Of a stretch of 37,631 nt of DNA, positions 10,250-35,241 are shown piece by piece (position 1 is the first letter of the stretch; each line of letters starts with the position of its first letter). The stretch comes from an uncultured bacterium. Lineage in GTDB: Bacteria; Verrucomicrobiota; Verrucomicrobiia; Verrucomicrobiales; Akkermansiaceae. Made by a program: the position numbers and the translations under genes. The DNA is taken from the NCBI GenBank assembly GCA_965650215.1, contig CBFGOB010000001.1:1-37631 (forward strand), written 5' to 3'. The notes beneath the pieces were generated by a model that was not told the DNA's origin, ran no database searches, and worked only from the letters and a program-made list of their open reading frames with translations.

Positions 10250-10268
10250 GCGCTTTCGGTGTCTGGGT

Positions 10269-12596
10269 TCAGGGGGTCCATTCGATGCGTTGTCCCGCTT
10301 TGGTGGAGTGGGATTGTTCTTTCCCCGCATGCCGGAGGACCAGCGGGCCGCCCAGATGGGAAAGAATGGTCGCGCGGGTGAGCGCCCCATCCTGCCACTC
10401 CATGTCGATTTCAAAGCCGCCGCGGGCGCGAAGTCCCTTCGCCGTGCCGTGGCTCCAGCCCTTGGGAAGTGCGGGCAGCAGGGTGACGCCGCCGTCGTGG
10501 CTTTGCAGCAGCATTTCGGCCACCGCCGCGCAGCCGCCGAAGTTGCCGTCGATCTGGAACGGCGGGTGCAGGCACATCAGGTTCGGGGCTCCGCGTCCGA
10601 TGAGCATCGAGAGCAATTTGTCCGCGCGGTCGCCATCGTGGAGCCTTGCCCAGAAGTTCGCTTTCCACGCCATCGACCAACCGGTCGAGGCATCGCCCCG
10701 GCGCTCGAGCGAGCGGCGGGCGCCTTCCAACAAGCCCGGGGTATTGCGGTTGATCTCGTTCCCCGGATGCAGGCCCCAGAGGTGGGATACGTGGCGGTGA
10801 TGGACTTCTGCTTCCTCGAAATCCTCCTGCCATTCCATGATGCGGCCGTCCTGTTTGAGTTTCGTGGGGGCGAGGCGCGCACGGGTTGCCTTGAGTTTCG
10901 CCGCGAATTCCCCGTCGTCACCGAGAATGGCCGCGGCCTCGGCGGTCGCATCGAACAAGCCGCGGATGATCTGCATGTCGTAGGTGGAGCCGGCGCAGAG
11001 CCAGGCCCTCACTCTCTTGCCGTCCTTGTTGGTGGTGAAATATTTGTTTTCAGGCGAACTTGAAGGCACGGTGACGAGGAATTTCGTTTTTGGATCCTCG
11101 ATGAGCACGGCGGCACAGAATTCGGCGGCACCGCGCAGCAGCGGGTAATGTCTCTTCAGGAAATCCTTATCGCGGGTGAACTCGTAGTGGGTCCAGACGT
11201 GTTGGACGAGCCACGCGCCACAGGTTGGTCCGGCCGAGGCGGACAGATAGCTGGGCGAAGTTTCAAACCACGGGTTTTGGGTGTGGTAGGCGGCCCAGCC
11301 CGGCGCGTTGAAGTAAGCTTTTGCCGTGCGTGCCCCTTCCTTGGCCATGCCTTCGAGGAAGCGCATCAGCGGCAGGTGGCAGTCGGCGAGATTGGTCACT
11401 TCGGCGGGCCAGTAGTTCATCTGCAGATTGATGTTCGTGTGGAAGTCGCCGCGCCATGCGGTCGAGTATTCCTCGGCCCAGATCCCTTGGAGATTGGTTG
11501 GCCAGCGCGAGTCCGGGCGCGACCCCGAAACCATCAGGTGTCGGCCATACTGGAAATACAGGGCGGCCAGTGACGGATCGGGCGAGCGTTGGTTGAGCTT
11601 CACTCGCTCCGGTGTCGGCAGCGCGGCATTCGGGCCGGCCGGCAGCGTGACCGTGCAACGCTGCATGTAGGACCCGTGGTCGGCCACCGCCGCGGCACGC
11701 AAGGCCGCCGCGGACTTTTGCCGTGCGGCGGTCAGCCGTTCGCGGGTTTGCTTTTCAAATCCGGCATCTCCCAGGCTGGTTCCCGCCGAGACGATCAGCA
11801 GCGCTTCGTCCGCGCCTTCGATGCTGATGCCTTGGTCGCTGGTGCTGGTTTTCCCACCAATGCTTTCCGCGCCTAACAGCGCGAGGATCCGCGTGCCTTC
11901 TCCGCCGCCACCGGGTTTGTTGAAGGGAAGCTGGCCGATGAGCGCATGCTGGTCTTTTTGCGCTTTGGCCGTGGCGTCCTGCTTGCGCGAAAGCGCGGCG
12001 CTGAATGTCAGTTTTTCCGTTCCTGTCGCCTTGAGGTGGACGACGATGACCTCGTCGGGTTTCGATACGAAGACTTCCCGTTTCTGGCCGGATCGATTCT
12101 GTTGGAAGATCGTCGTCGAGACCCCCTGCATCAGGTTCAGGTCACGGCGGTAACCGCTTGCCGCGCCATCACCGCCTTTTGGAAAGCGGATGGTCAGGTC
12201 GCCGAGAATCTGATAACAGCCGAATTGATCGGCATCCCACCAGCCCTTGATTCCGGCGGGATACTGGAAGTTTTGTTTCAGCAGGGCTTCGGTGCCGGTG
12301 AGATCGCCGGAAAACAACTTCGCGCGCACTTCGGGCAGGCACTTCCAGGCGTCGTAATGGTTTGGATCATAGGGTCCGCCGGACCAGACCGACGACTCGT
12401 TGAGCACGATGCGCCATTCATCGATACCGCCGAAATCCATCGCGCCGAGGCGGCCGTTGCCGACAGGACAGGAGCTGTGGAAACTTTTGGCGGGTTCGGT
12501 GAACCACACACTCATGGGCTCCGCGGGGGCATCCACAGCGCATGCGAGGGAGGAGCCAAGGACCAAGGAGCACAGCCCCATGTGGAGTCGGTGCAT
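10269..12596 (-). CDS. GH95 alpha-L-fucosidase
   Basis: Motifs PVGNGRLGAM, LNESSVWSG, FQYGRHLMVSGSR, NLQGIW, HTNINLQMNYWPAE, HHRHVSHLWGLHPG and HPPFQIDGNFG. Signal peptide starts at ATG 12596; ATG 12677 is an alternative start. Confidence 0.93.
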   Translation of the reverse strand: MHRLHMGLCSLVLGSSLACAVDAPAEPMSVWFTEPAKSFHSSCPVGNGRLGAMDFGGIDEWRIVLNESSVWSGGPYDPNHYDAWKCLPEVRAKLFSGDLTGTEALLKQNFQYPAGIKGWWDADQFGCYQILGDLTIRFPKGGDGAASGYRRDLNLMQGVSTTIFQQNRSGQKREVFVSKPDEVIVVHLKATGTEKLTFSAALSRKQDATAKAQKDQHALIGQLPFNKPGGGGEGTRILALLGAESIGGKTSTSDQGISIEGADEALLIVSAGTSLGDAGFEKQTRERLTAARQKSAAALRAAAVADHGSYMQRCTVTLPAGPNAALPTPERVKLNQRSPDPSLAALYFQYGRHLMVSGSRPDSRWPTNLQGIWAEEYSTAWRGDFHTNINLQMNYWPAEVTNLADCHLPLMRFLEGMAKEGARTAKAYFNAPGWAAYHTQNPWFETSPSYLSASAGPTCGAWLVQHVWTHYEFTRDKDFLKRHYPLLRGAAEFCAAVLIEDPKTKFLVTVPSSSPENKYFTTNKDGKRVRAWLCAGSTYDMQIIRGLFDATAEAAAILGDDGEFAAKLKATRARLAPTKLKQDGRIMEWQEDFEEAEVHHRHVSHLWGLHPGNEINRNTPGLLEGARRSLERRGDASTGWSMAWKANFWARLHDGDRADKLLSMLIGRGAPNLMCLHPPFQIDGNFGGCAAVAEMLLQSHDGGVTLLPALPKGWSHGTAKGLRARGGFEIDMEWQDGALTRATILSHLGGPLVLRHAGKEQSHSTKAGQRIEWTP

Positions 12597-12710
12597 CGTG
12601 TCTTTCAACCGATGGTGGCTCCGGACATCGCCGGATCGGCGGGTCATGGGGATGGAGGCAAGGACGGAGGGTCGCATATCGGTTGTTGAGTGATGGGGCT
12701 TGTGAGGGGT

Positions 12711-17351: not shown

Positions 17352-18352
17352 GGCCTTTGCCTTTCCTGATAGATCTGATGCTGGTTGCGGAGTTCTTTTT
17401 CGGAAGGTGCCGCGCCCTGGCGGATCCAGAAGCGGTATTGCAGGGTGAGCGGCCGGGCTTTCTCCAGGGCATGGCGGGTTTTGGCGTGCGGAAAGGCCGG
17501 CTGGAACCAGGATAGTTCCGGATACTGGATATGGTCCGCCGGGTAACCCGGATTCGTGGATTTCTCGAACACGGTGAGCGACATCGGCGTGGAGCTGCCC
17601 TGCCAGCGGCCAGCCGCCAAGTGCCAGGCGACGCGCGACGGGGTGTTTTCGGGATCGGCGTGGTGGAGCAGTTGCGTCCCCTCGATTTTCGGCATGCGGA
17701 TGTTGAGGCCGCCGTATTGGGTGGTGCCCCGGCGGGCAAGCGTGACGCCATCCTCCAACGCTTCGAAGCGCAGGGTGAGATCGATCCAACGACCATGCGC
17801 TCCGGACTGCCATGCGCGGATGATGGCTGTTTCCCGCACGACCGGCGTCTTGTCCTCCCACATCCAGCGGTTCAGAGCCTCGATTTCGACCCAAGCTTCG
17901 CCGCTGCGCGTTTCCATCTTGCCACTTGGCCGTGCCCAGACCCGCTGGAGGGCGTGCAAGTCGCCGGTTTCGCCCATGTATCCCACTTCCGGCCATGCCC
18001 AGTAAATGCCGCGATGATGCGGATGGTCCGGATTCCAGTCCGAAGTCAGGGGCATGCCGTCCAGATCACACAAGGGATGGATGTAGTTGCTGCGGGCTAG
18101 GGCGTATTTACCGTGTTTTTTCGAGCCGGAAAAATCCGCCGGGACAGGGACGTTCCTGTAGTGATAGACGAGCACCGTTTTGCCTGCCTCGGTGATGGTC
18201 ATCCGCCCGCTTGCTTCGTCGTATGTGGCGCGCGGCGCATCCGCGGCACGTGCCACCGCCGCGAGGGTCAGCAGCACGGCGCCAAAGACCGGCAAAGCCA
18301 TGGCCAAGCGATCGTGCCGCATGGGCTTGGACATGGCGATGCTTGGATTCAT
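17348..18352 (-). CDS. DUF6807 (PmoA-like, PF14100-type) secreted protein, 334 aa
   Basis: Start ATG 18352 overlaps the esterase stop. Family-like motifs RSNYIHPL and DHPHHRGIYWAW, plus YGGLNIR and LTLQYRFWI. Confidence 0.75.
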   Translation of the reverse strand: MNPSIAMSKPMRHDRLAMALPVFGAVLLTLAAVARAADAPRATYDEASGRMTITEAGKTVLVYHYRNVPVPADFSGSKKHGKYALARSNYIHPLCDLDGMPLTSDWNPDHPHHRGIYWAWPEVGYMGETGDLHALQRVWARPSGKMETRSGEAWVEIEALNRWMWEDKTPVVRETAIIRAWQSGAHGRWIDLTLRFEALEDGVTLARRGTTQYGGLNIRMPKIEGTQLLHHADPENTPSRVAWHLAAGRWQGSSTPMSLTVFEKSTNPGYPADHIQYPELSWFQPAFPHAKTRHALEKARPLTLQYRFWIRQGAAPSEKELRNQHQIYQERQRP

Positions 18353-18382
18353 TGGCGCGGCCAGTCGTCGGTGCGGAAGGGA
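18256..18382. repeat. Diverged direct repeat, copy 2 (3' end of esterase gene, ATGA junction and DUF6807 signal-peptide region)
   Basis: Partner of 15911-16040, offset 2342 bp in the core. Confidence 0.85.
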
Positions 18383-19824
18383 GTGGCGGGGAGGCCCGCT
18401 TGGTTGACGAGGTTGACCCATGGCGTGTTGCTGAAGGCATAACGGCAGGCGACCGGAGACTCGACCGCTTCCGCGCGCAATTCAACGGTCGTTCCCTTGA
18501 TCAGCGCTTGCGCGGGATGCCATTGGCGGTCGGCTCCGGCCAGCCAGAATCCGGCAGGTGCCTTGCCATCCTTGGTCGACAGGCCGTCGGCATGATCGAA
18601 CATGATGGTGACCTTCGGGCCATCGATCCGGTGTTTTGAAAAGACGGGTCCGCGTGCGGCGACCGGATCCTGATAGATGTCGTTGCGGGCGATGCGTGCC
18701 AAGCGATCGGCGATCGGCGCCTTGTCCGCCGGGTGGATGTTCTTCGGATCGCCGAGGTCGATGGTGTTGACCAGGGCGGCGTGGGGAATGGCGAGCCCCT
18801 TGGTCTGGGCTTCGCGGAACCAGGCCCAGGAGCCGGGATCGGCCACTCCCTTGTCCTCGCCGTATCCGGGAAGCATCACGCCGAGCACCTGGAGGTCCTC
18901 GCGCTGCCAGCGTTTGCGCAGTTCGCGGACCCAGGCCGGAAGGCTGGCGGCGTAGAGCTCGGGTTGGGCGCTGTTCGCTTCGCCCTGGTACCAGACGATG
19001 CCGCGGCAGCCGTAGGGGATGAGCGGGTGGAACATCGCGTTGTAGACGATGTTCGGTTGCCTGCGCACGAAGCTCATGCCGTCGCGGATGCCCATCTTCA
19101 TGGCTTTCTCCACCCGTTCCCGGGCGGATTGCGACTTCTGGAAGTCATCCATGATCTTCTTGAAATGCGGCAGTTCCGCCGTCAGTTCGATGGGCATCCA
19201 GCCTTCGATGAACGAGCTTCCCCAGCAGGTGACGATCGCCGCCACCGGGACGTTCAGCGATTTCTGCAGGTGGTAACTGAAGCCGAAGGCCACCGCGCTG
19301 CCGGGCAGGTCGGTGGACCATTGGCCGGCGCAGGCATCGGTGGGCCCGAAGGACGCGTTGGGTGGCACCTCGTAGCTGCGGATCGGCAGACCGGCGGACG
19401 CGTCCGCGAGCTTGGCGAGGTCGGCATCGCCGCCCCAGTTGTAGCGGGCCTTGGATTTCGTGCCCCAGCCGTATTGCATGTTCGACTGGCCCGAGCAGAT
19501 CCAGACCTCGCCGACCAGCACGTCCTGGAATTCCTTGCGGCTTCCTTTGGATTCGATCGTCATGACGCGTCCTTCCGCCGAGGCTGGCATGGCGGGAAGC
19601 CGGAGCATCCATTTGCCATCCGCGCCCGTGATGGCTTGCGCTTCCTTTCCGGCGAAGCGGGCGGTGACCGTATCGCCGGGATCGGCCTTGCCCCAGACGG
19701 GCACCGCCAGTTCACGTTGCAGGACCATGTGGTCGCCGAACATCGGGGAGACCTGGAGTTCGGCCTGGGCCAGCGTGATCAGAGGCAGGATGGCACAGGC
19801 GAGGATGGGGACTTGGTGTTTCAT
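18349..19824 (-). CDS. Sialate O-acetylesterase-like (SASA/SGNH) carbohydrate esterase, 491 aa
   Basis: FGDHMVLQR, VLVGEVWICSGQSNM (catalytic Ser), GIVWYQGEAN, NIHPADK (His) and a C-terminal PFRTDDW. Has a signal peptide. Confidence 0.92.
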   Translation of the reverse strand: MKHQVPILACAILPLITLAQAELQVSPMFGDHMVLQRELAVPVWGKADPGDTVTARFAGKEAQAITGADGKWMLRLPAMPASAEGRVMTIESKGSRKEFQDVLVGEVWICSGQSNMQYGWGTKSKARYNWGGDADLAKLADASAGLPIRSYEVPPNASFGPTDACAGQWSTDLPGSAVAFGFSYHLQKSLNVPVAAIVTCWGSSFIEGWMPIELTAELPHFKKIMDDFQKSQSARERVEKAMKMGIRDGMSFVRRQPNIVYNAMFHPLIPYGCRGIVWYQGEANSAQPELYAASLPAWVRELRKRWQREDLQVLGVMLPGYGEDKGVADPGSWAWFREAQTKGLAIPHAALVNTIDLGDPKNIHPADKAPIADRLARIARNDIYQDPVAARGPVFSKHRIDGPKVTIMFDHADGLSTKDGKAPAGFWLAGADRQWHPAQALIKGTTVELRAEAVESPVACRYAFSNTPWVNLVNQAGLPATPFRTDDWPRQ

Positions 19825-19838
19825 GGGTGCCGGGGCAA

Positions 19839-21125
19839 TTATCTGTTAGAGTTGGTTTTGGGCAGTGGGTTGACCGCGATTTCATCGAGGAACAGCGATG
19901 CGTTGCCGAGGTGGAAGGTCAGTTTGATGAACCGCACTTCAGGGCGGCCGATGTCGAAGAACAGCAGGCACGCCTGCGGGCCCGCCATGTCGGGGTCCTT
20001 GCGTTTCGGCTGGAGGGTGAAGCCGTTGTTCCGATGGGTCGCCAGCACCTCATAGTGCTGGCCGTCCTTCGAGGTGGCGAGATCCGCCTTGGCGGGAAAG
20101 CCGATGCCATCCGCTTCGTGGAGCAGCAGATTGGCGGCGATGGCCGCCACGTCCTGCGGCTTGTCCAGATCCACCACCAGCTCCACGGTTTTGGCCGAGG
20201 GCTTGAAAGCGACCCAACCCTTGCCTTTCGGGTCGTTTCCGCTGTAGGTGCCGTCAGTCAGTGCCGCGAGTGCGGCGGGTCCGGCCTCGGGCGTGGTGCC
20301 GCTGCTGCGTTTCCCAATTGCCGCGTGGGTCGAGATCTCGGTCGCGGTGTTGAAGAAGTGGGCGTTGAAGATGGTTTCATCGGGCTTCAGCTGGGGATCG
20401 ATCAGCTTGCAGGCGGCACGGGCAAAGCGCTGCCCGAGCGTCCGGTAGCCGGCATTCGGAAAGTGTTCGCCGTTGGCTTCATAGACGCTCCATGGGTTGA
20501 TGCCCGCATTGAGATCGTCCGTATCGACCCAGGCACCGTTGGCGTTTTCCTCGCCGAGTTTGACCTGGGCCTCGCGCACCGCTTGCTTGCCTGGCGAATG
20601 TTTGCCATTCGGCCGGTGGTCGTTGATGCGGCCCAGCACGAAGCGGATGTCATCGCGGTTCAGGTCGGCCTTGAGCTGGTCGATGATGCCGAGGAAGCTT
20701 TTCCCGTACACCGCCCCCCATCCGGCGCTGCCGTCCGCCTCGCCCTGCATCCAGATGAAGGTGACGCTGGAGAACTTCCGGTCGCCGGCCTTTTTGCGCA
20801 CGTTCTCCATCAGCTTGTCGTAGAGCACCCCGTTCTTTTCCCCCTCCTTGAGTTGGAAAGCGTCACCTTCCGGCGGGGTCCACTTCTTGTACCACTGCCG
20901 GATCGGCTGGCTCGGATGCGAGTGGGTGACGACCGTGACCTGATCCTTGCCGAAGACCTTGGCCACCGCTTCTTCAAACGACTGCGGCAGCGGGTGCCGC
21001 ATGTTCGATTGTCCGGAGAGGATGAAGAGGTGTCCGGAAGCGCCGGTGTCCGATGGCGCAGCGGGCAAGCCACCGGCAAGCGCGAGGCTGCCCAGGACTC
21101 CGGCGAGCTTGCGTTGCAGTTTCAT
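19839..21125 (-). CDS. SASA/CE6-like acetylesterase with C-terminal discoidin/F5-8C-like domain, 428 aa
   Basis: Start ATG 21125 gives a signal peptide. Motifs HLFILSGQSNM, FIWMQGEAD, VDTDDLN and EHFPNAGYRTLGQRFA. C-terminal LTDG..W..LVVDL..RFIKL..LFLDEIAV module. Confidence 0.82.
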   Translation of the reverse strand: MKLQRKLAGVLGSLALAGGLPAAPSDTGASGHLFILSGQSNMRHPLPQSFEEAVAKVFGKDQVTVVTHSHPSQPIRQWYKKWTPPEGDAFQLKEGEKNGVLYDKLMENVRKKAGDRKFSSVTFIWMQGEADGSAGWGAVYGKSFLGIIDQLKADLNRDDIRFVLGRINDHRPNGKHSPGKQAVREAQVKLGEENANGAWVDTDDLNAGINPWSVYEANGEHFPNAGYRTLGQRFARAACKLIDPQLKPDETIFNAHFFNTATEISTHAAIGKRSSGTTPEAGPAALAALTDGTYSGNDPKGKGWVAFKPSAKTVELVVDLDKPQDVAAIAANLLLHEADGIGFPAKADLATSKDGQHYEVLATHRNNGFTLQPKRKDPDMAGPQACLLFFDIGRPEVRFIKLTFHLGNASLFLDEIAVNPLPKTNSNR

Positions 21126-21133
21126 GATGGATT

Positions 21134-23152
21134 TCAGTTGGATGGCTTGTTCCGCCCCTGGAGTTCGAGCATCGCCTTGCCGCAAGCCTCGCCGATTTCG
21201 AGGAAGGATTCGGCGTTCGAGTGATAGACGGTGGCATATCCTCCAGGAGATTGGTTGGGTGCGCGGAAGAAGGGCTTCGTATCGACGCTTTTCACATTGC
21301 CGGAAAATTCCGGGTGTTTCGCCGCATCGCCCACCGCCATCTGCGCGGCGTGGATCTTGCCATCGTCAAATGCCACCGCTCCCACGACCACCGGCAGCTC
21401 CGGTGCCTTGAGGTCGCGGCGCAGGTCGCGGATCAGGTTGGCGAGGTTCTTTTCGTAAGCCGCCTTGTGGGCGGGCGACTGGCTGTCGGAGATCCCGTGG
21501 AACCACAGCATGCCGGCAATCTCGTAGCCTTGATTCTTGTAGCCGGGAAGGAAGCGCGGCAGCTGGGCGAGCGAATCGTTCACCGCGTTGACCAGTTCCA
21601 GGTATTCCTGACCGCTCTGCAGATAGGTCTTGAGGTCCAGCCAGCGGTCGATCTGTTCCAGCCCGTTCCAGGTGTCTTCGGCATTGCCGGGGTTTTTGAA
21701 AACCGCGGCCTTGCCGTCGAAATGCTGCATGACCCTGCCTTGGTAGCCGCCGGTGATCGAGTCGCCGATCAAGAGCACGCGCGGCAGCGGCTTGGTGGTT
21801 TTGGTGCGGGAGGCAAGCGCGCCTTCGATGGTTTGGATTACCTGGGGCGCGAGGTTGCCGACGTCATGGACGTTGTTGCTTTTGGCGGCTCCCTGACGGC
21901 GGGTTTCGGCGTTGAGGTCGTTGATGATCACCCCGTTTTCCTTCATCACCTTTTCCGCCACCCGGTTGAAGGCGTCCTCGTCCGCATTCAACCTGCCGGG
22001 TTCGCCCGGCCATACCGGAGTCACCGATCCCCAGATGAGGGTCGCGCCGGTCTTCTTCATCTTGCCAACCAGCACGCGCAGGTTCTTCTCGAAATCCTCG
22101 ACCGAGGTGATGTTGTGGCCGGAGAAGTATTTCGAGGTCGAATCGCGGTAGGTCGCATCCCAGACGCCGTGGTTGAAGTGGATGACATCCCAGGTGCCGG
22201 ACAGGTCGGGATCTCCACCGCTCGATGGCGGCATGTAGTCGTGCCCGAGGGATCGGGCGTCGCCGGGAAACCAGATCGTGTTGGTAGTTGCGAAGCGCAG
22301 CAGGAACACCGGCTCGTCGAAATGGTCGCCCAGGGTCTTGCCCAGGGTGAGGGCGGGGCCGACGCCTTGCGCCAGCTGCAGGGGGGTGCCCGGCGCGCGC
22401 GTGTTGTTGTAAATCGGATGGGCGTCGTAGAGTGTCACGTCGTCGCGTTTCATGTCCTTGAGGAACGCGTATTGCGGCTTCTCGGCCATCAGCGTCTCCA
22501 AGGTGCCGGGGAGTCCGACCTGCGGCACGCGGATGTCCTGTCCCGGCTTGCGGAAGAAGACCGTGCGGAACGTGTGGCGTTTCCCCTTTTCGAGGGTCAA
22601 TGGGCTGACGCGCGCCTTTGCCTGGCCGGGCTCGCGCCGCCAGACCTCCTTGCCGTCGACAGTGGTGAGGTTGAAGGCCGCCTCTCCATCCGCGATATGG
22701 ATTTCGTATTGGCCCGACTTGGGCACGGTGAGGTATCCCCGCAGCACCGTGGTGTAGCCTTCCTTGGACGCCAGTTCCGGCAGCAGGGCGAAGGGCTTGG
22801 GTTTCCTCTTGGCCGCCTGGTTTTCGCCGAGGCCAACAAGGCCGGTCCATTCCGGCGTGAGTTTGTCATAGTCCGTGCCGGCCTGGTAAGCACCTGTATA
22901 GACCGCGGCGTTCACATGGCGTCCGGCTTCGTCCTTCGCTGGTTTTTCATTCGGGTAGAACACCGCGTCCCGGCCCTCGGTGCGGCCGGAGATTGCGCCG
23001 GGGTCGAGGCAGTTCCCGTCGCCGGCGAGAATGAACACTTTCACCGGCTGGTCGGATCCGGCGGCAGGCAGGCCAAAAGCCGGGATCAAGCCAAACGCGG
23101 CGATCGGCAGAAGAGAGAGCGGTCGTGCATGATTCCAAGGCATGCGCGGCAT
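21134..23152 (-). CDS. Multidomain esterase-like protein: degenerate SASA scaffold with inserted PA14-like domain and circularly permuted SGNH/GDSL hydrolase
   Basis: SASA segments VKVFILAGDGN, GP.LTLG..LGDHFDEPV..RSLGHDYMPPSS and YEIAGMLWFHG..YEKNLANLIRDLR..NAESFLEIGEA. Inserts are VLRGYLTVPKSGQYEI..LEKGKRH (PA14-like) and WDVIHFNHG..NNVH..LPRVLLIGDS..GNAEDT (SGNH). Start at 23152 or 23143. Confidence 0.8.
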   Translation of the reverse strand: MPRMPWNHARPLSLLPIAAFGLIPAFGLPAAGSDQPVKVFILAGDGNCLDPGAISGRTEGRDAVFYPNEKPAKDEAGRHVNAAVYTGAYQAGTDYDKLTPEWTGLVGLGENQAAKRKPKPFALLPELASKEGYTTVLRGYLTVPKSGQYEIHIADGEAAFNLTTVDGKEVWRREPGQAKARVSPLTLEKGKRHTFRTVFFRKPGQDIRVPQVGLPGTLETLMAEKPQYAFLKDMKRDDVTLYDAHPIYNNTRAPGTPLQLAQGVGPALTLGKTLGDHFDEPVFLLRFATTNTIWFPGDARSLGHDYMPPSSGGDPDLSGTWDVIHFNHGVWDATYRDSTSKYFSGHNITSVEDFEKNLRVLVGKMKKTGATLIWGSVTPVWPGEPGRLNADEDAFNRVAEKVMKENGVIINDLNAETRRQGAAKSNNVHDVGNLAPQVIQTIEGALASRTKTTKPLPRVLLIGDSITGGYQGRVMQHFDGKAAVFKNPGNAEDTWNGLEQIDRWLDLKTYLQSGQEYLELVNAVNDSLAQLPRFLPGYKNQGYEIAGMLWFHGISDSQSPAHKAAYEKNLANLIRDLRRDLKAPELPVVVGAVAFDDGKIHAAQMAVGDAAKHPEFSGNVKSVDTKPFFRAPNQSPGGYATVYHSNAESFLEIGEACGKAMLELQGRNKPSN

Positions 23153-23574: not shown

Positions 23575-26262
23575 TTATTGGGGTGGATCGCCAACTCGAG
23601 TCATGGGGATCAGGGTGACGGGGCCGAGCAGGCCGGAGGCTTCGATCGGCCATGACGAGGCGTCGAATCGCTTGTAGTGGTGGTCGACGAAGTTGATGTC
23701 GTGGAACTTTTTCCACGCGATCTTGCGCTGATCGAGATCGCGGATGCGGTTGGCGGAGAGGTTGGTGACCTCGATCTCGATCGTGTTCCCGCCCTCCCGC
23801 AGGAATTCGGTGACGTCCAGGCGGAAGGGATGGGCGATGAGCATGCCGGCGGGTTTGCCGTTGATGCGGATGCGCGCGCTTTCGCGGACCTCGCCGAGGT
23901 CGAGGATCCAGCGGGTCGTGGACTTTGCGGGGGCATTGAGGGTGGTCGAGTAGTTGGCCGTGCCGGCGAAGCGTTTGGCTTCGGGGTCGGCGGATTCCGT
24001 CCACGAGCCAAGTGTGGTAACGCTGGCCGCTGCGGGCAGGACCGGGCCGCCTTCGAGGAAGCGGATGGCCCACGGTCCCGACACCGCGAGGGCTTCGCCC
24101 GCCGGTTGCAGCATGGGCCAGAAGGCTTCGTTGCCCTCCTCGTGTTCCCGGACGCGGAGAATGCGGGACTCGCCCGGCTGGATTTGCAGATGGACGGAGG
24201 TGATTGCGTTTTGGGTCCGCGTGTGAGCCTTGCCGAGGGCGCCGGTCATCGGATCCATGAGAACGGCGGACTTGCAAGGCGCGGTGATCGCTATCCATTC
24301 GTCCACGGGGTTTGCCGACTGGTTGGCGATGAAGTACAGAACCTCACCTGGAAGTTTGCGGCGGATGCATCGGAGCCCGTGGTCCGCCATCGCTTCGCGG
24401 GAGATCCCTGTTTTTGCCATCAGGTCGGCGAGATCGTCGCCGAGCAGGATGCGTCCTTGGCCAAGCGGGGCGATGCCATCCGAAAATTCCAGGCCGTCTA
24501 GCAGCATTTTCAGCTGCTGCTCCCGTTCGTTGTGCTTGTGCCAGCCGGGCACGTTTTGCGGCAGGTGTTTCCAGATCACGATGCTGGCACCGGCATCGGC
24601 GAGTCCGATCAGGTGGCGCACGGTCCCGATGTTCATGAACTGCGCTGCGGGGACCACGATGGTTTGGTAGGTGCTGCCGCCTTGGGTGATGAGCTGTTGG
24701 TTTTGAAAGCGGGTTTGTTCAAGCTGCGAGTCCGAAATGAAGTCGAAGCTGTGGCCCTGTTGCATCAGCCATCGGCCGGCCTCGCCACAGGCCAGGTCTT
24801 CGATCCATGAGGGGCGATGCACCGAGAAGCGTGTTTCGTTTTTTCCGCCGCTCATCCAAAGATCATACACCGGCCAATAGAGCAGGATGTCGTGGTGTGC
24901 TTGCCCTTGCTGGAGGACGCTTTGGCAGCGGGTGAGGTAGGCGTTGAGTGCCGGGATGTCGCGGAAGATGGAGTTGCGTGCGTTCACCTGGGTGGAGGCA
25001 TAGAACAACCAGCCCGGCCACTCGGTTTTCTCCGGCGAATAGCAGGTGCCGTGATAATAGATGCCGTTGATCCCGCAGAGCAGCAGCCGGTCCGCCTCGG
25101 GTTTGAGGTGGGAAAGCGCGGTGTGGAAGTGGTTTCTCAGCCAGGTGAAGCTTTCCGAGATCACGAGGTTCCGCCCGGCCACGTGGGCGGCGGAGGAGGC
25201 GAAGCGGTGGACCATCTCGCTGTGCGGCTGGTCGAGGGATGAATGCGGGTCGCGCCGATAGCCGGGGATGTTGAAGTGGTTGGCCCCGAAGACTTCGGTT
25301 TCCGGAATGCTGGCCGCCGCATACATGTCGAGCAGGTTGGCGGGTGCGCCGTGGGCCTGCATGCGAAGTCCGCTGCCGCGCTCCTCGCTCCAGCCCGCGA
25401 TGTGTCCCACGCATTCCAACAACAGATCCGAGAGGGTTTCGCGGTAGTCGCAGAGGACGCGACGGACTTCTTCGGGATCGCCAGTGCCAGCGAGGGCGGC
25501 GGCGTGGGCGTGGATGTCGTAGCCGCGCGATTGTTCGAAGCGCAGCGGCAGTTCGGGGGCCCAGTTGCCGGGATTCTCGAAGGAGTCGTAGTAGAAGGCC
25601 CGCGGTGGCAGTCCCTTGCCTTCGCGGAAGCGATCGGCCAGCCAATCGAAGTGGAATTTCACCGCCGCCGGGGAATACGGGTTGATGCACAAGCCTGCGC
25701 CGCCGGGACCGGGGCGCTTCACGCGGTCGCGGCGGACGAGGACCTCGATTTTTCCATCCTTCACGGCAAACGAGCGCTCGGAATGTTCCGGGGTGACATG
25801 GGGGCCGCCGAGCCGCCAGCCGGAGGACGGGGTGAGGTCGATGTGCATGCCGAGCCGCCTGGCCTCGTTGACCGTGTGATTGAACATTTGAAACCACTCG
25901 GGGGAGAAAATCGGGATGGTCCGGTTTTCCTCGCCCTTCACGCCGTAGATGCCGATCACGCCCATGTTGCCCCAGCCAGCGTGGCGGTAGGTTTCGAGGT
26001 TCCAGGTCAGATCCTCCCGAGTCACCGCGCTCCCGGGCCACCACCAATAGGATCCGGGACGCGCCTCGGGATGGACTTCCGGCCAGCCGGGCGAAGGGTT
26101 CCCATGGAGGAAATAAGCATCGGGGGGGGGCCAGGCGGGGCTGAGATCGGGCGAGGCCGGGTCGCTCGGCACGGTGGATGGATCGGCGGCGGGCGAGGAC
26201 TGGAGCGCTGCACAGGCGAAGAGCGCAGCGCCCCTTGGCATGATGTGAAGCGGAGTTCTCAT
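23575..26262 (-). CDS. GH106 alpha-L-rhamnosidase-like glycoside hydrolase, 895 aa
   Basis: EARPGSYWWWPGSAVTREDLTWNLE, SGWRLGGP, FYYDSFE, MQAHGAP, IPETEVF, FASSAAH..SESFTW, GINGIYYHG, YLTRCQSVLQQG and C-terminal LDLGEV..SGLLGPVTL. Confidence 0.9.
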   Translation of the reverse strand: MRTPLHIMPRGAALFACAALQSSPAADPSTVPSDPASPDLSPAWPPPDAYFLHGNPSPGWPEVHPEARPGSYWWWPGSAVTREDLTWNLETYRHAGWGNMGVIGIYGVKGEENRTIPIFSPEWFQMFNHTVNEARRLGMHIDLTPSSGWRLGGPHVTPEHSERSFAVKDGKIEVLVRRDRVKRPGPGGAGLCINPYSPAAVKFHFDWLADRFREGKGLPPRAFYYDSFENPGNWAPELPLRFEQSRGYDIHAHAAALAGTGDPEEVRRVLCDYRETLSDLLLECVGHIAGWSEERGSGLRMQAHGAPANLLDMYAAASIPETEVFGANHFNIPGYRRDPHSSLDQPHSEMVHRFASSAAHVAGRNLVISESFTWLRNHFHTALSHLKPEADRLLLCGINGIYYHGTCYSPEKTEWPGWLFYASTQVNARNSIFRDIPALNAYLTRCQSVLQQGQAHHDILLYWPVYDLWMSGGKNETRFSVHRPSWIEDLACGEAGRWLMQQGHSFDFISDSQLEQTRFQNQQLITQGGSTYQTIVVPAAQFMNIGTVRHLIGLADAGASIVIWKHLPQNVPGWHKHNEREQQLKMLLDGLEFSDGIAPLGQGRILLGDDLADLMAKTGISREAMADHGLRCIRRKLPGEVLYFIANQSANPVDEWIAITAPCKSAVLMDPMTGALGKAHTRTQNAITSVHLQIQPGESRILRVREHEEGNEAFWPMLQPAGEALAVSGPWAIRFLEGGPVLPAAASVTTLGSWTESADPEAKRFAGTANYSTTLNAPAKSTTRWILDLGEVRESARIRINGKPAGMLIAHPFRLDVTEFLREGGNTIEIEVTNLSANRIRDLDQRKIAWKKFHDINFVDHHYKRFDASSWPIEASGLLGPVTLIPMTRVGDPPQ

Positions 26263-26302
26263 GGGTGGAAAACCGGACAGCGATCTCCGTAAGGTTCTGG
26301 GT

Positions 26303-27661
26303 TTATTCCAGGCGGATCACGGTGGCGATGGGGTCGGGCAGTGTCGGGGTGAGGTGGATGATGGCTTGTTCGTCCTTGCGTGTGACCTTGAGGGACCCAC
26401 CATTGGCGAGCAAGGTGGCTTTGGAGCCGGGAAGCGCGATGGTGATCGTGCCATCGGCGGGGCGGGAGAAGAGGTGGAGGTAATGGACCTTGCCTTTGGT
26501 GGTGATGCGGCCGTCGAAGGCCGGGGTGCCGAGCGGTGCTCTGGTGGTGCCGCGGATCGCTTCGGCGTTGGTGTCCATCCATTTGCCGATCGCCGTCATG
26601 GTGTCGATGCTGGGTTGGGGGATGGAACCATCACCCGTGGGTCCGACGTTGAGCAGGAAGTTGCCACCCTTGCTGGCGATGTCGACCAACTTGCGGATGA
26701 TCGCTTCCGGGGATTTCCAGTGGTGGTCGTGCTCGTTGTATCCCCAGGTGCCGTTCATCGTCATGCAGGTTTCCCAGTCTCCTGCGGGGATGTTCTTTGC
26801 GGGGATGTGCTGTTCGGGCGTGATAAAGTCTCCGAATTGGTGATCGAGTGTGGAACCGCTTTTGCCGGTCGCCATGTTCCAACCGGATTCCTCGGTGCGG
26901 AAGAGCCGGTTGTTGATGATGACTGCGGGTTGTTTGGCGCGGACCTTTTGGATCAGATCGAAGGCCCGCCAGCCCTCTTGTCCCTGAAGGTCGGGGGCGC
27001 TGTAGTCGAACCACATGAGGTCCACCTTGCCGTAGTCCGAGATCAACTCATCCACCTGTGCGTGCAGGAAATCGACGTACTTCGCATGGTCGCGGGTGCC
27101 ATTGGGGTAGGGGTCTCCCTTGAGCGGATGCGGGAGGATGTTCGTCCGGTTGTATGCATACTGGTCGTGGTGCCAGTCGATCAGCGAATGATAGAAACCG
27201 ACGCGCAAGCCTTCGGCGCGGCAGGCATCGACGAATTCCCGGACCAGATCGCGGTTCAATGCCGCGCCGGCGTGGAAATCGCCGAACTCCGAATCGTGCA
27301 GGGCGAATCCGTCGTGGTGCTTGGTGGTGAGCACGACATATCCGCATCCGGCGGCTTTCGCGAGCTTGGCCCACTCCGCTGCGAAGCCCGTCTTGGGTTG
27401 CAAGGTGGGAATGGCCGCCTTGGCATAGGAGCCGGTATCGGCCCTGACTTTGAGTGGCACAAAGATGCCCTCGGGCTCATCAGCGGGTTTGCCGTTCCAG
27501 TTGCCGGCGAGACCCGAGTAGATCCCCCAGTGCACGAACATCCCGAAGCGCGCATCGCGCCACCAGGCCATGCGGGCATCGCGATCGGCAGGGGTCTCGG
27601 ACCGGACGCCTGTGACCGACAGAAGCGCAAGCGCGAGGATGCGAAGCGGGATGGATTTCAT
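26303..27661 (-). CDS. GH29 alpha-L-fucosidase family protein (paralogue A), 452 aa
   Basis: WWRDARFGMFVHWG, TTKHHDGF, nucleophile MWFDYS, FITPEQ, WETCMTM and GGNFLLNVGP. Signal peptide from ATG 27661. Confidence 0.93.
   Translation of the reverse strand: MKSIPLRILALALLSVTGVRSETPADRDARMAWWRDARFGMFVHWGIYSGLAGNWNGKPADEPEGIFVPLKVRADTGSYAKAAIPTLQPKTGFAAEWAKLAKAAGCGYVVLTTKHHDGFALHDSEFGDFHAGAALNRDLVREFVDACRAEGLRVGFYHSLIDWHHDQYAYNRTNILPHPLKGDPYPNGTRDHAKYVDFLHAQVDELISDYGKVDLMWFDYSAPDLQGQEGWRAFDLIQKVRAKQPAVIINNRLFRTEESGWNMATGKSGSTLDHQFGDFITPEQHIPAKNIPAGDWETCMTMNGTWGYNEHDHHWKSPEAIIRKLVDIASKGGNFLLNVGPTGDGSIPQPSIDTMTAIGKWMDTNAEAIRGTTRAPLGTPAFDGRITTKGKVHYLHLFSRPADGTITIALPGSKATLLANGGSLKVTRKDEQAIIHLTPTLPDPIATVIRLE
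26543..26721. repeat. 179-bp perfect direct repeat inside GH29 paralogue A; identical to 29994-30172
   Basis: Manual alignment found no mismatch from GGTGGTGCCGCGGATCGC to GGATTTCCAGT. The flanks diverge immediately. Confidence 0.9.
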
Positions 27662-27686
27662 GGGGGTGATCTTAAGCAGAAAAATC

Positions 27687-27815
27687 AATCGCAGCTGAAC
27701 GCGGATGCTAGGATGCCAGGAGACTTGTGAAACATGGGGAATTCGCCCGCTGGGTGAATGCTAGGTTCAACGCGAATCTTTGATGATCTGCGTGAATCTG
27801 CGGCCATCGGCGGTT
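27687..27815. repeat. Degenerate inverted repeat with 10-nt periodic arms (AACCGCAGAT/ATCTGCGGTT type)
   Basis: Left arm AATCGCAGCTGAACGCGGAT (27687-27706). Right arm ATCTGCGTGA-ATCTGCGGCC-ATCGGCGGTT (27786-27815), abutting the stop of the upstream gene. Confidence 0.6.
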
Positions 27816-29707
27816 CAATTGGAGCTGGCGGCTGGTTCAAGGGGCCAAACCCTGACGGACTTGCCGGACAAGGGTTTTTCCAACGGGCCGGGAAACGGAT
27901 TCTCCGGGTTGCGCTTGTTGCCGAAATAATCGGTGTTGATCGTCAGCGGCGAAGCATCGGGATTTTCGTAAGCACCGCCTGTCACTTTCGGCTTGCCGAG
28001 CAGATCGGTGGTCACGGGTTGGCAACGGGCCTTTTCACGCCACTCCTCTTCCGTGTTGAGGGTGAGATGCCAGCCATCGTCTTTCTGCTCGAGCCTCACG
28101 CCCACATCGACCTCCGGCAACGCCAGCGCCGCGGTGTCGAACTTCAGCGGGGTCGCGCCTTTCGGGAAGACATTGCCGGCGGCGAAACACGGCCACATCG
28201 TCGTGTTGATGGGTTTCCGGCGGTCCTCGGCTGCAGTGATGATGTTGTTGTAAAAGCGGTGATCGCCACTGTGGCCATCCGCGCAGGGATGCATTCCCGC
28301 GATCGCCGTGTCATGTGCCTTCAGAAACGGCGTGATGCGGTTGTCGCCCACCATGGAGCGAATCCTTCCCACGATCAAATTGTGCGCGAATGCCATGCCA
28401 ACGGCATTCACGGTCATGGCTGTGCGGGACATGAGCAGATTGTTGGAAAGCAGCATCGGGCCATGCTGCATTTCCAGGAACAGATCCTCGCTGTTGTTGC
28501 GCATCAGATTCCCCTCAAGGCGCACGCCCTGCCCCATCCAGTCCAGCCAGATTCCGGACCGGCTGCAGTTGTAGATATGGTTGTGGCTGATGACCATATC
28601 CACCGCGCCGTGGAACTTGATGCCGGCCATTTCGGCACCGGTGTACAGCTTGCGGACATGGATGTCGTGGATCTCGTTGCCGGTCACGGTGCTGTAGGCG
28701 CAGCCGAGGCTGCCGACGATCCCCGTTTGTTCGCAGTGGGAGATCCTGTTGTTGCGAACCAGATGGCTACCGATGGTTTCCTTGTTCCAACCGTTCTTCA
28801 GCGCGCGTTCGATGGTGGCGACATAGCCGCCGGTTCCGCCTTTCATTTCCTTCTGCAGCCATTCCGGCTTGTCCCTGATCGCCTCACCATTGTCCCATTC
28901 ATCGCCGTATTTCCCCAACGCCACGCCGGCGCATGGAGAATACGCGATGCGGTTGTTCTCGATGATCCAGCCCTTGCACCAGTAGGCGGTGATGATCCCG
29001 ATCTGCGCGGCGGTGGGAGGCGCCCACGGCGAGGCGGCAGCCCGCAACTCGAAGCCCCGCACGGTCAGGTAATTGATGCCTGTTTTCGACGGCGTGAACA
29101 CGGTTTTGCGGACGTTGATCTCCACATTCTTCTCGTTCGGATCGACGTCCTTGAACTGTGCGAGGATCGTGGTGTTCGCATCATCCACCGTGGCAAACCA
29201 GAATGGATTGTTGCCAACCGGCTTCATCACTTCCTCCTGTTTGACGGTTTCCGTGAGCCAGTGCCCGTCGAGATACACCGCGCCGGTGTGGTAGCCACCG
29301 CGATTGCCGCACCAGTCGCCACGAACGACATCCGAGAACGGATTGAAATCGCCGAAGAACGTGTTCGGAAGGATCACCTTCCAGGTGTCATTCGAGACCT
29401 TCGTCCAGCCTTTGACCGGCTCAGCGCCGGTGATGACGGCCTTTGCTCCCGCAGCGGCCTGATAGATGATGCGTTTCTCATCCGACGCGCCGCCCCGCGG
29501 CGGGTCAATCCGCTCGCGATAGATGCCTTCATGAACGGTGATGGTGTCGCCGGGCCGGGCGACATCGGCGGCACGCTGGATCGTGCGAAACGGCTTGTTT
29601 TCCGTGCCAGGGTTCCCGTCATCCCCCTTCGGGGCGACGTGGATTTCCGCGGCATGGGCAAGCGCCGAAGCGAGGGTGATGAGGGTCAGGTATTGGGCCG
29701 TTTTCAT
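27815..29707 (-). CDS. GH120-like beta-xylosidase (DUF1565 / right-handed beta-helix), 630 aa
   Basis: EIHVAPKGDDGNPGT..PFRTIQRAA..PGDTITVHEGIYRERIDPPRGG, VEINVRKTVF, WAPPTAAQIG, KGWIIENN, IGSHLVRNN, GAEMAGIKFHG and GIWLDW. Has a signal peptide. Confidence 0.85.
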   Translation of the reverse strand: MKTAQYLTLITLASALAHAAEIHVAPKGDDGNPGTENKPFRTIQRAADVARPGDTITVHEGIYRERIDPPRGGASDEKRIIYQAAAGAKAVITGAEPVKGWTKVSNDTWKVILPNTFFGDFNPFSDVVRGDWCGNRGGYHTGAVYLDGHWLTETVKQEEVMKPVGNNPFWFATVDDANTTILAQFKDVDPNEKNVEINVRKTVFTPSKTGINYLTVRGFELRAAASPWAPPTAAQIGIITAYWCKGWIIENNRIAYSPCAGVALGKYGDEWDNGEAIRDKPEWLQKEMKGGTGGYVATIERALKNGWNKETIGSHLVRNNRISHCEQTGIVGSLGCAYSTVTGNEIHDIHVRKLYTGAEMAGIKFHGAVDMVISHNHIYNCSRSGIWLDWMGQGVRLEGNLMRNNSEDLFLEMQHGPMLLSNNLLMSRTAMTVNAVGMAFAHNLIVGRIRSMVGDNRITPFLKAHDTAIAGMHPCADGHSGDHRFYNNIITAAEDRRKPINTTMWPCFAAGNVFPKGATPLKFDTAALALPEVDVGVRLEQKDDGWHLTLNTEEEWREKARCQPVTTDLLGKPKVTGGAYENPDASPLTINTDYFGNKRNPENPFPGPLEKPLSGKSVRVWPLEPAASSN

Positions 29708-29753
29708 GTCTTCAAATGGTTCAAGGATTTGTCTTTCTGGATTTGAGGAAGGA

Positions 29754-31112
29754 TCATTCCAGGCGGATCACGCTGGCGATGGGATCGGGGAGGGTCGGCG
29801 GAAGGTGGATGATCGCTTGTTCGCCCTTGCGCGCGACCTTGAGGACCTCTCCACTGGTCAGCAGGGTGGCCTTGGTGCCGGGAAGCTTGATGGAGATCTC
29901 GCCGGTGGCGGGGCGGGAGAAGAGGTGGAGGTAGTGGGTTTTTCCTTTGGTGGTGATGCGGCCGTCGAAGTTGGGAATGCCGAGCGGTGATTGGGTGGTG
30001 CCGCGGATCGCTTCGGCGTTGGTGTCCATCCATTTGCCGATCGCCGTCATGGTGTCGATGCTGGGTTGGGGGATGGAACCATCACCCGTGGGTCCGACGT
30101 TGAGCAGGAAGTTGCCACCCTTGCTGGCGATGTCGACCAACTTGCGGATGATCGCTTCCGGGGATTTCCAGTCCTGATCGTGCACCGAATACCCCCAGAC
30201 CCCGTTCATGGTCATGCAGGTTTCCCAATCCGCTTCAGATATTCCGCTTTCGGGGATGTGTTGTTCCGGCGTGATGAAGTCGCCAAATTGGGTGTCGAGC
30301 GTGGTGCCGCTGGAACCGGTTTTCACGTTCCATCCCGCCTCTTCGCTGCGGAAGAGCCGGTTGTTCATGATGATGCCCGGCTGTTTTGCCCGGACCATCT
30401 TCATCAAGTCGAAGGCACGCCATGCTTCCTGTCCCTGAAAGTCCGGTGCGCTGTAATCGAACCACATGACATCCACCTTGCCATAGTTTGAAAGCAGTTC
30501 ATCCACCTGGGTGTGAAGATAGTCGACGTATTTCGCATGCTCGCGAAGGCCGTTTGGGTAGGGTTTGCCCTTGAGCGGATGATGAAGCGTCGTTGAACGG
30601 TTGTATTCATACTGGTCGTGATGCCAGTCGATCAGCGAATGATAGAAACCGACGCGCAGGCCTTCGGCGCGGCAGGCATCGACGAATTCACGGACCAGAT
30701 CCCGCTCCAGTACCGAGCCGGCGTCGAAATCACCGGCCTTCGAATCATGAAGGGCGAAGCCATCGTGGTGTTTGGTGGTCAGCACCACGTAGCGGCAGCC
30801 GGCGGCTTTCGCGAGCTTGATCCATTCGCGTGCGAATCCCGCCTTGGGACTGAACTGCTGAATGCCGGCCTTGGCATAAACAGCCGTGTCCACCTTGGCT
30901 TTCAATGGGATGGAGATCGAGTCGGGATCAACGATCATCCTGCCATTCCAGTTGCCGGCGAGACCGGAGTAGAGTCCCCAGTGGACAAACATCCCGAAGC
31001 GTGCCTCCCTCCACCAGGACATGCGGGCATCACGATCCGCCGCGGTTTCGGCCCGGACGCAGGAGGCTGACAGAAAAAGCAGGGCGAAGGTGCGCAGGAG
31101 GCTGGATTTCAT
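29754..31112 (-). CDS. GH29 alpha-L-fucosidase family protein (paralogue B), 452 aa
   Basis: WWREARFGMFVHWG, TTKHHDGF, MWFDYS, FITPEQ and GGNFLLNVGP. Signal peptide from ATG 31112. Confidence 0.93.
   Translation of the reverse strand: MKSSLLRTFALLFLSASCVRAETAADRDARMSWWREARFGMFVHWGLYSGLAGNWNGRMIVDPDSISIPLKAKVDTAVYAKAGIQQFSPKAGFAREWIKLAKAAGCRYVVLTTKHHDGFALHDSKAGDFDAGSVLERDLVREFVDACRAEGLRVGFYHSLIDWHHDQYEYNRSTTLHHPLKGKPYPNGLREHAKYVDYLHTQVDELLSNYGKVDVMWFDYSAPDFQGQEAWRAFDLMKMVRAKQPGIIMNNRLFRSEEAGWNVKTGSSGTTLDTQFGDFITPEQHIPESGISEADWETCMTMNGVWGYSVHDQDWKSPEAIIRKLVDIASKGGNFLLNVGPTGDGSIPQPSIDTMTAIGKWMDTNAEAIRGTTQSPLGIPNFDGRITTKGKTHYLHLFSRPATGEISIKLPGTKATLLTSGEVLKVARKGEQAIIHLPPTLPDPIASVIRLE
29994..30172. 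repeat. 179-bp perfect direct repeat inside GH29 paralogue B; identical to 26543-26721
   Basis: See partner copy; offset 3451 bp. Confidence 0.9.
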
Positions 31113-31156
31113 GGGAGTGGGGATTCGAGGTGGGAGACCGTCCGGATGCAAGCGGA

Positions 31157-32515
31157 TCACTCGAGGCGGATGACCGTTGCCACCGGATCGGGCAATGCCG
31201 GAGGAAGCTGGATCACGGCCCGTTCGCCATTGCGCCATGCCTTGAGGGCTTGATTTTCATGCAGCAATGTCGCCTTGGTGCCGGGAAGCTTGATGGAGAT
31301 CTCGCCGCTGGCGGGGCGGGAGAAGAGGTGGAGGTAATGGGCCTTCCCTTTGGCCGTGATGCGGCCGTCGAAGTCCGGCAGGCCGATCGGTGATCTGGTG
31401 GTGCCGCGGATCGCTTCGGCGTTGGTGTCCATCCATTTGCCGGTGGCCGTCATGATATTGACGCTCGGTTGTGGGATCGAACCGTCAGCGGTCGGTCCGA
31501 TGTTGAGGAGGAAGTTGCCGCCCTTGCTGGCGATGTCGATGAGGGTGCGGATGATCGTTTCCGGCGACTTCCAGTTGTGATCGTATTCGCTGAATCCCCA
31601 GGTGCCGTTCATCGTCATGCAGGTTTCCCAGTCCATTCGGGCGTCAAAGGCGTTGGGGACATGCTGTTCGGGGGTGGCAAAATCACCAAAGCCCCCATCG
31701 AGCGGACGGCTGATGTCGGCACCGCCATCGATGCTGAAGCCTGCTTCCGGTCGGCGGAACAGGCGGTTGTTCATGATGAGGTGCGGCTGTTTTTTGCGGC
31801 ACTTGTCCATCAAGTCGCCGGCCCTCCACGCCTCGTCTCCGTCAAAGCCGAACGAGCTGTAATCCCACCAGACGATGTCCACCTTGCCGTAGTTCGACAT
31901 CAATTCATCGACCTGGCCATGAAGGAAATCGACGTAGCGGTTGTGGTCGCGCGGGCCGTGACTCATCCGTATGCCGTCTTTGGGGTAAGACGGAGCGGTG
32001 GCCTTGGTGTAATCGTATTGCGGGTGGTGCCAATCGATCACCGAGTGGTAGAAACCGACACGCAGGCCCTCCTTGCGCAGCGCCCCGGTGATTTCCCGGA
32101 CCAGGTCGCGGTTGAGCACATCACCGGCATCGAACTGGGTGAGCTTCGAATCGTGCAAGGCGAAGCCATCGTGGAATTTGGTGGTGAACACCACATACTG
32201 GCAGCCGGCCTGCCGGGCGAGTTTCGCCCATGCGGTGGCAAAGTCCGGTTTTGGTTGGAAATCCGGGATGGTTGCGGCGGCGTAGCTGTGGGTATCCGCA
32301 TCGACCAGCCGTTGCGTGTGTTCCAGGTTCTGGTCGCCGGGCACCGGCTTGCCCTTCCATGTTCCGGCCAGTGACGAATAGAGTCCGTAGGTGACGAACA
32401 TTCCGAAGCGCGCCTCGCGCCACCAGGCCATGCGGGCATCACGATCCATCCCGGCCCGCGCTCCCGTGGCGAAGCACAGGGACAAGGAGCCAATTTGAAG
32501 CAGCTTGGATTTCAT
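31157..32515 (-). CDS. GH29 family protein with atypical -1 subsite (paralogue C), 452 aa
   Basis: FGMFVTYG (normally VHWG), TTKFHDGF (normally KHHDG), VWWDYS, FATPEQ and GGNFLLNIGP. Signal peptide from ATG 32515. Confidence 0.92.
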   Translation of the reverse strand: MKSKLLQIGSLSLCFATGARAGMDRDARMAWWREARFGMFVTYGLYSSLAGTWKGKPVPGDQNLEHTQRLVDADTHSYAAATIPDFQPKPDFATAWAKLARQAGCQYVVFTTKFHDGFALHDSKLTQFDAGDVLNRDLVREITGALRKEGLRVGFYHSVIDWHHPQYDYTKATAPSYPKDGIRMSHGPRDHNRYVDFLHGQVDELMSNYGKVDIVWWDYSSFGFDGDEAWRAGDLMDKCRKKQPHLIMNNRLFRRPEAGFSIDGGADISRPLDGGFGDFATPEQHVPNAFDARMDWETCMTMNGTWGFSEYDHNWKSPETIIRTLIDIASKGGNFLLNIGPTADGSIPQPSVNIMTATGKWMDTNAEAIRGTTRSPIGLPDFDGRITAKGKAHYLHLFSRPASGEISIKLPGTKATLLHENQALKAWRNGERAVIQLPPALPDPVATVIRLE

Positions 32516-32550
32516 CGGACTGCTAGAGATCCACAGGGTGGGGGTGAAGA

Positions 32551-33786: not shown

Positions 33787-33848
33787 ATGGTCGGTTGTTC
33801 AAGCTGGTGTGGACCATCGCTCCCAGCGCTCCAGGATCCAGGACGCGC

Positions 33849-35198: not shown

Positions 35199-35241
35199 GA
35201 GTGGATGATTGGGATGTTAGAATGTCGCGGTGTCGCTGCGT

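Follow-up and report, generated by a model that had tools for sequence, protein, structure and literature searches.

A circularly permuted SGNH domain nested in a dead SASA/CE6 domain: a likely secreted O-acetylesterase, probably for fucose-rich glycans

How does one esterase-like domain come to lie inside another, and which of the two does the cutting? This question is raised by a gene from an uncultured Akkermansiaceae bacterium. The window, which is the whole stretch of 37,631 nucleotides analyzed here, contains a reading frame which a sequence-only reading had described as a SASA esterase with altered catalytic motifs, interrupted by a PA14-like module and by an SGNH module in permuted order. 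We call the outer domain the host and the inserted SGNH module the guest. All motifs were found in the reading frame where they had been placed, and the chain is laid out as follows.

21134..23152, minus strand: whole open reading frame, 672 aa (P0001); the open frame also reaches an ATG at 23236
23060..23152, minus strand: putative signal peptide, residues 1-31, with low pLDDT; homologues have a hydrophobic N-terminal 10-mer
22985..23047, minus strand: first SASA strand of the host and its dead block I, GDGN instead of GQSN (23012-23023; Asp45 invariant, no Ser)
22517..22984, minus strand: PA14-like beta module, residues 57-212
22217..22516, minus strand: host middle segment, residues 213-312, with a loop specific to nested proteins (H245-P-x-x-N249-N250-T251) and with Arg286, which is Lys in intact hosts
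21803..22198, minus strand: guest, originally C-terminal part, residues 319-450, with block III HFNxGxWD (Asn327, Asp332; WDVIHFNHG at 22166-22192), block V NxH (NNVHDV at 21860-21877) and a shortened post-His loop
21866-21868, minus strand: codon of guest block V His429
21638..21793, minus strand: guest, originally N-terminal part, residues 454-505, with block I GDS and block II GN (Gly489, Asn490; GNAEDT at 21671-21688)
21758-21760, minus strand: codon of guest Ser465 (GDS)
21149..21625, minus strand: host C-terminal segment, residues 510-668, with block III WFHG..D (WFHG at 21494-21505) and VYHSNAE (21209-21229)
21227-21229, minus strand: codon of Val642, which replaces the host catalytic His

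A start near 23152 is favoured since a median of 31 residues precedes the first strand in homologues; the hydrophobic N-terminal 10-mer occurs in 112 of 116 of them. Pfam matches of P0001 to SASA (PF03629, E 2.6e-15, 57.1 bits against a cut-off of 24.8), Lipase_GDSL_2 (E 3.1e-10) and PA14 (PF07691, E 1.6e-6, 31.2 bits against a cut-off of 24) all exceed the curated cut-offs, while NCBIfam gave no match for the four proteins scanned. The AlphaFold model of the full chain has a pLDDT of 90.5 and a pTM of 0.86. A scan for promoters and terminators stayed at chance level.

The homologue search returned 889 matches among 7997 scored candidates, and the best 120 of the 889 were taken. The query and 115 of these 120 form a 116-row alignment, from which the self match, three partial proteins and one long fusion were left out. 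A second set comprises the 163 distinct nested homologues having all host and guest segments, which share this architecture. We considered a misassembled or chimeric gene and rejected it: 116 full-length homologues align, and each domain junction lies within one contig of run X1, in which two contigs overlap by 30 bases inside the guest and which may be the source sample and not independent. A genome scan gave 74 loci, and the titles of nested forms are Verrucomicrobiota, Planctomycetota, Lentisphaeria, Kiritimatiellia or unassigned. Four of 41 genomes of this and related species proved to contain a contiguous permuted guest, which indicates a patchy accessory gene. Two nested genes stand in tandem at three loci (L026:473-5530, L031:1997-6235 and L020), and several genomes hold more than one copy.

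The outer segments do form a SASA fold in the predicted model, as had been supposed: segments 34-666 align to the SASA/CE6 acetylesterase At4g34215 (2apj) with a Z of 23.0 (rmsd 3.4, 225 aligned), and also to CAC0529 (1zmb, Z 22.3), NanS (3pt5, Z 19.6) and the CE20 enzyme XacXaeA (7kmm, Z 21.4). Fold and motif order are shared with SASA/CE6 enzymes; the nested host differs in having lost the Gln and Ser of block I and the His of block V, in reading QG[I] instead of QGE and in carrying two large inserts. Passages of PMC9487903 describe block I Gln and Ser as required in SASA enzymes. The change from GQSN to GDGN, without Ser, extends to the whole family: block I is GD followed by Glu, Ala, Asp, Gly or Gln in 163/163 nested proteins, with Asp in place of Gln in all of them and Ser in none. 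The register of the host His, previously uncertain, could be settled. Val642, not His644, aligns to the catalytic His in the YHYNRNAE motif of intact relatives, and this column holds His in 2% of the 163 nested proteins (P0042 and P0123 among them) versus 94% of 54 intact hosts, which were picked by GQSN so that their Gln and Ser counts hold by construction. WFHG had been listed as another sign of inactivation, and this part did not stand: it is only a minor variant (Gln in 90/116, His in 26/116). Block III QGE as such is not kept in the host (Q90/H26, then G, then I89/L8/V5/E5/T4; n=116), and the intact sister P0125 likewise lacks the block III Glu (QGH). The host catalytic residues Ser, Gln and His are lost across the nested family, and database names such as "sialate O-acetylesterase" for nested proteins describe the dead domain.

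What does the dead host do? Asp45 and Arg286 are invariant in the 163 nested proteins and differ from intact hosts, and H245, P246, N249, N250, T251, Y510, Q515, E519 and R533 occur in more than 90% of nested hosts and are rare or absent in intact ones. Such newly conserved residues could mean that the host was re-tooled, with Asp45, Glu46, Arg286 and the HPxxNNT loop forming a new catalytic site (for example for acid-base chemistry on glycan) in a bifunctional protein. We regard this as very unlikely: different residues (E, A, D, G, Q) occur at position 46, nothing conserved stands out as a second catalytic partner, and an Asp-Arg plug of the old site, or an interface, would be the simpler explanation. 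A covariation analysis by MI-APC (163 rows, effective number 87) picked out mainly variable columns, and no usable contacts emerged. The dead host is instead likely to be a scaffold, a docked platform with a putative glycan-binding surface. Indirect support for this role comes from the host-specific invariant residues and from linkers of nearly fixed length, namely nine residues in 146/163 and in 138/163 proteins, with the internal linker the same in 159/163. Such linkers, together with the high whole-chain pTM of the model, suggest rigid docking of guest and host. SASA domains without GQSN or His and without a guest also exist (P0135, P0205, P0228 and P0259), and P0160 contains a dead SASA domain as well, so death of the host does not need the insert.

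Pfam and Foldseek agree on the PA14-like insert that had been noticed after host motif I, the segment matching the PA14 structures 6xa5, 5j6y and 5a3l. The module is present in 128/163 and missing in 35/163 nested proteins. The calcium-dependent sugar-binding motif of PA14 domains is DcisD, and Asp-Asp was found in 5/116 proteins at the segment judged equivalent (residues 148-162), in a tentative register. Among PA14-bearing hosts that have no guest, 22/25 keep GQSN; of the three exceptions, two appear to be truncated at the N-terminus and P0135 is degenerate. The module was inherited from the intact host parent and is dispensable in nested members.

The guest is an exact circular permutant of a normal-order SGNH domain. 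Its blocks run III-V-I-II, as had been read, and it matches normal-order relatives in swapped halves: residues 89-231 of P0276 correspond to query residues 319-455 (52%) and residues 35-86 to query residues 454-505 (62%), which places the cut point in the short loop between the block II helix and the block III strand. Searching with a guest profile recovers BT3161 (4h08) as two pieces in swapped order (E 1.9e-12), and 4h08 was the only Foldseek match of the guest with E < 0.001. Modelled alone, the guest is predicted to be one domain of five strands (pLDDT 95.2, pTM 0.92) in which both SGNH halves pack together. An order-dependent structural aligner matched guest residues 1-130 to C-terminal parts of SGNH enzymes and residues 1-190 to HAD-type folds, with Z of only 7-9. 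The sheet order is 21345 in SGNH and 54123 in HAD proteins, and with these orders the pattern is what a permuted sheet predicts. No solved chain among the matches listed aligns as an SGNH enzyme over the entire permuted guest, and Pfam gave no match to the 57-aa block I-II half alone.

Conservation in the guest is high. GDS is kept in 163/163, the His in 162/163 and HFNxGxxD in 163/163 nested proteins, and Ser465, His429, Asn327, Asp332 and Asn490 are invariant in 116/116. Gly489 of block II, which was assigned by alignment to the normal-order parent, is found in 113/116. The assignment of WDVIHFNHG to block III was right as to location; the canonical GxND Asn is absent, its position being taken by Trp331 (GVWD; Trp in 114/116), and Asn327 sits elsewhere. 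Block III of 4h08 is likewise non-canonical. Block V is NxH or DxH and has no conserved DxxH acid: position 426 varies, and of 162 proteins 115 have Asn, 46 have Asp and one has Glu at position 427.

The invariant Ser465 and His429 point to the guest as the supplier of catalysis. Ser465 would act as nucleophile and His429 as base, with tuning by Asn/Asp427 (NxH/DxH), perhaps via a water as in CE20, and the oxyanion hole could be formed by Gly489 together with Asn327 or Asn490. At a probability of roughly two in three, we read the protein as a dead SASA/CE6 host with a permuted, inserted SGNH guest that does the cutting, likely a secreted O-acetylesterase and probably acting on fucose-rich glycans. 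No biochemical characterization of any member or close parent was found in the literature searched, 4h08 being a structure only. Alternatively, both SGNH domains could be dead and the protein a glycan-binding accessory of fucosidase loci whose guest Ser and His are kept for a ligand. The non-canonical block III, the missing DxxH acid and the shortened post-His loop would fit such a role, as would the existence of doubly degenerate GDSL-SASA fusions (P0160, P0201 and P0206) and the intact SASA esterases adjoining the nested gene. However, these degenerate fusions have lost the His, whereas five guest residues are strictly invariant, and passages of PMC9487903 and PMC12313940 describe CE2 and CE20 enzymes that are active with a dyad or with a triad anchored by Asn. 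A doubly dead protein is therefore distinctly unlikely in our judgement. The three fusions join a normal-order GDSL domain without block V His end to end with a SASA domain with degenerate motifs, and they form a separate clade (97).

Permuted SGNH enzymes (AlgX, PatB1) and insertions into SASA cores (CE20) are known already; the cut point and the nesting set the present family apart, and no description of either was found in the literature searched. CE20 enzymes (XacXaeA, Fl8CE20_II and PpCE20_II) have a SASA-type core split by an inserted domain, as in the nested host, and residue numbering places their insert between blocks II and III, apparently as in the nested protein. Passages of PMC12313940 and PMC8245568 describe the CE20 inserted domain as docking over the active site, and those of PMC12313940 describe active enzymes in which the anchor is Asp or Asn and works via water. 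In CE20, however, catalysis is done by the host, the insert is a beta-sandwich without catalytic function, and these roles appear reversed in the nested protein. CE20 enzymes also combine an active GQSNM/DxH core with two flanking beta-sandwiches, whereas the nested protein has no GQSN and no flanks, and its core spans from the signal peptide to the chain end.

AlgX, AlgJ and PatB1 (DHHW) resemble the guest in having a permuted SGNH core with Ser and His kept and a DxH-type block V, as given in passages of PMC9487903, and 4nzk aligns to guest residues 19-188 with a Z of 7.5 (rmsd 4.3, 149 aligned). This likeness raises the possibility that the guest is an O-acyltransferase of their kind, with Trp331 shielding the acyl-enzyme from water, since the known permuted SGNH enzymes in those passages are transferases with an altered block III and DxH. 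The order described there is H-S-G-N with a cut before block V, whereas the guest is N-H-S-G with a cut between II and III; the guest has a separate origin from a BT3161-like parent and is nested within another SGNH domain. P0001 has no match to the ALGX/DHHW Pfam families at E 0.1. Both cut point and ancestry thus argue against a transferase, as do the degradative neighbours (GH29, GH95, sulfatases and GH106) and the fusion of guest parents to fucosidases, and we give this idea very little weight. The direct guest parent is found among BT3161-like Lipase_GDSL_2 proteins (4h08) and the short-loop, fucosidase-fused P0276 and P0422, which have the HFNxG block and the short His loop in common with the guest; unlike the guest, this subfamily has normal order and is free or fused end to end.

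Both parent types are still alive. Intact PA14-SASA proteins are 40-44% identical to the nested host and normal-order SGNH proteins are 52-62% identical to the guest. In a guest tree of both halves (74 rows), the permuted guests are monophyletic (100/98) and fall among short-loop normal-order singles (100/99), with the first repeats of P0127-type tandem genes just outside these singles; a tree of the C-half only (95 rows) agrees. The host tree (87 rows) was subsampled and built by a quick method; in it the nested hosts make up a single clade (SH-aLRT 100), whose sister is the intact, PA14-bearing P0125 plus the partial P0150 (support 84). Proteins without PA14 arise in at least three places inside the nested clade. 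Host and guest each have a single origin, and several lineages later dropped PA14. Taken with the PA14 hosts that keep GQSN and have no guest, the two trees indicate that PA14 came first and that the guest entered once. In two places (G000 contig C244:250-3100 and L060:5313-8428) the gene of an intact PA14-SASA protein and a normal-order gene of the guest family overlap, so both parent types are adjacent there.

Tandem duplication of BT3161-like genes has occurred many times independently, repeats pairing within P0151, P0157, P0161, P0168, P0174, P0177, P0185 and P0470, and the guest aligns in one stretch to the middle part of tandem P0127 (52%). Together these make permutation by duplication a likely route. 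Among the 28 tandem proteins flagged (112 proteins read; some repeats missed by the pattern), none had the guest's short His loop. We propose that an intact PA14-SASA protein took in, once, the III-V-I-II middle of a duplicated SGNH gene, and that the loss of the host triad would fall on the same stem branch as the entry of the guest. P0138, a single protein of 250 aa on a contig of 1130 bases, consists of a signal-like N-terminus followed at once by a permuted guest, lacks a host, and branches with weak support (94/72) as the sister of all nested guests. It may be a free-standing permuted intermediate, or it may be a deletion product given its LDPxxYL junction-like tail. No other free-standing permutants were seen among 118 short matches (fragments aside) or 36 metagenome loci.

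What the guest would cut is suggested by its surroundings. The neighbours used in this argument are as follows.

19839..21185, minus strand: downstream neighbour, SASA with intact GQSN and an F5/8-like module
18349..19824, minus strand: second downstream SASA-family esterase, intact GQSNM
23575..37617, minus strand: upstream co-oriented genes, with GH106, GH29 fucosidase matches (four full, one partial), a beta-helix GH120/GH141-like protein and DUF6288
10269..12677, minus strand: GH95 fucosidase (Pfam), same co-oriented run

At L024:4108-6996, a homologue of the first downstream neighbour forms a single-frame fusion with a nested protein that lacks PA14. DUF6288, frequently accompanied by PDZ and HEAT, is found repeatedly next to nested genes; it lies at 35242-37617 in the window, has about 20 matches in the same genome, and no mention of it was found in the literature searched. 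The window also contains a 1005-aa reading frame without a Pfam match at E 0.1 (1637-4654, plus strand), a 777-aa frame with a Laminin_G_3 match only (8081-10414, minus strand) and a GFO/IDH/MocA oxidoreductase (16062-17996, minus strand). The latter has a Tat signal at residue 223 of the listed frame, so its real start codon probably lies well downstream of the ATG given for the frame.

Among 37 short-loop normal-order parents longer than 413 aa, the fusion partner is GH29 in 32 and GH95 in one (33/37), though these proteins are kin. Nested loci of at least 9 kb carry a fucosidase in 16/39 cases (23/39 have none) versus 0/13 other GDSL loci, and the contrast is weaker for loci of all lengths (26/76 versus 5/30); three of the queries behind these counts came from nested loci and find themselves, and kin are not independent. 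The four nearest frames at 38 nested loci include fucosidases (12), DUF6288 (10) and sulfatases (7). The signal-like N-terminus, the fucosidase cluster, the parent fusions and the locus counts together support an O-acetylesterase of fucose-rich glycans, which would free these glycans of acetyl blocks for the fucosidases. Another possibility is that the guest is an active esterase of general purpose or for other acetylated glycans (xylan, rhamnogalacturonan or sialic acids), the link to fucose merely reflecting the lifestyle of the hosts. GH43/GH10 and BNR neighbours at L004, L005 and L007 and a GH43 fusion (P0031) are consistent with this, and the genome itself is rich in fucosidase matches (about 26 in 3.0 Mb). 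Still, the great majority of the direct fusions of the nearest parents are to fucosidases, and we consider other glycans unlikely. Passages of PMC6017418 summarize the fucoidan deacetylase Fud of Luteolibacter algae H18, an organism of the same kind with the activity predicted for the nested protein; the two could be related. The passages on fucoidan in PMC13668718 and PMC11685898 name no SGNH enzyme.

Returning to the fucose-directed esterase, we tentatively envisage a catalytic hand-over, an idea that we hold with less than even confidence. A guest in a loop on the active-site side would have replaced a working SASA enzyme, and the host pocket (Asp45, Arg286, the HPxxNNT loop, Tyr510, Gln515 and Arg533) would have been rebuilt as a putative site for acetylated fucose-rich glycan feeding the guest. 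If true, this would be a new carbohydrate esterase family and a new SGNH permutation, with both parents alive and a possible free-standing intermediate in P0138. One protein records circular permutation, domain insertion and pseudoenzyme formation, and the record is unusually complete with parents of 40-60% identity. The "sialate O-acetylesterase" labels in databases point at the dead domain of these proteins, which constitute, for Verrucomicrobiota and Planctomycetota, a candidate family of deacetylases for fucose-rich glycans.
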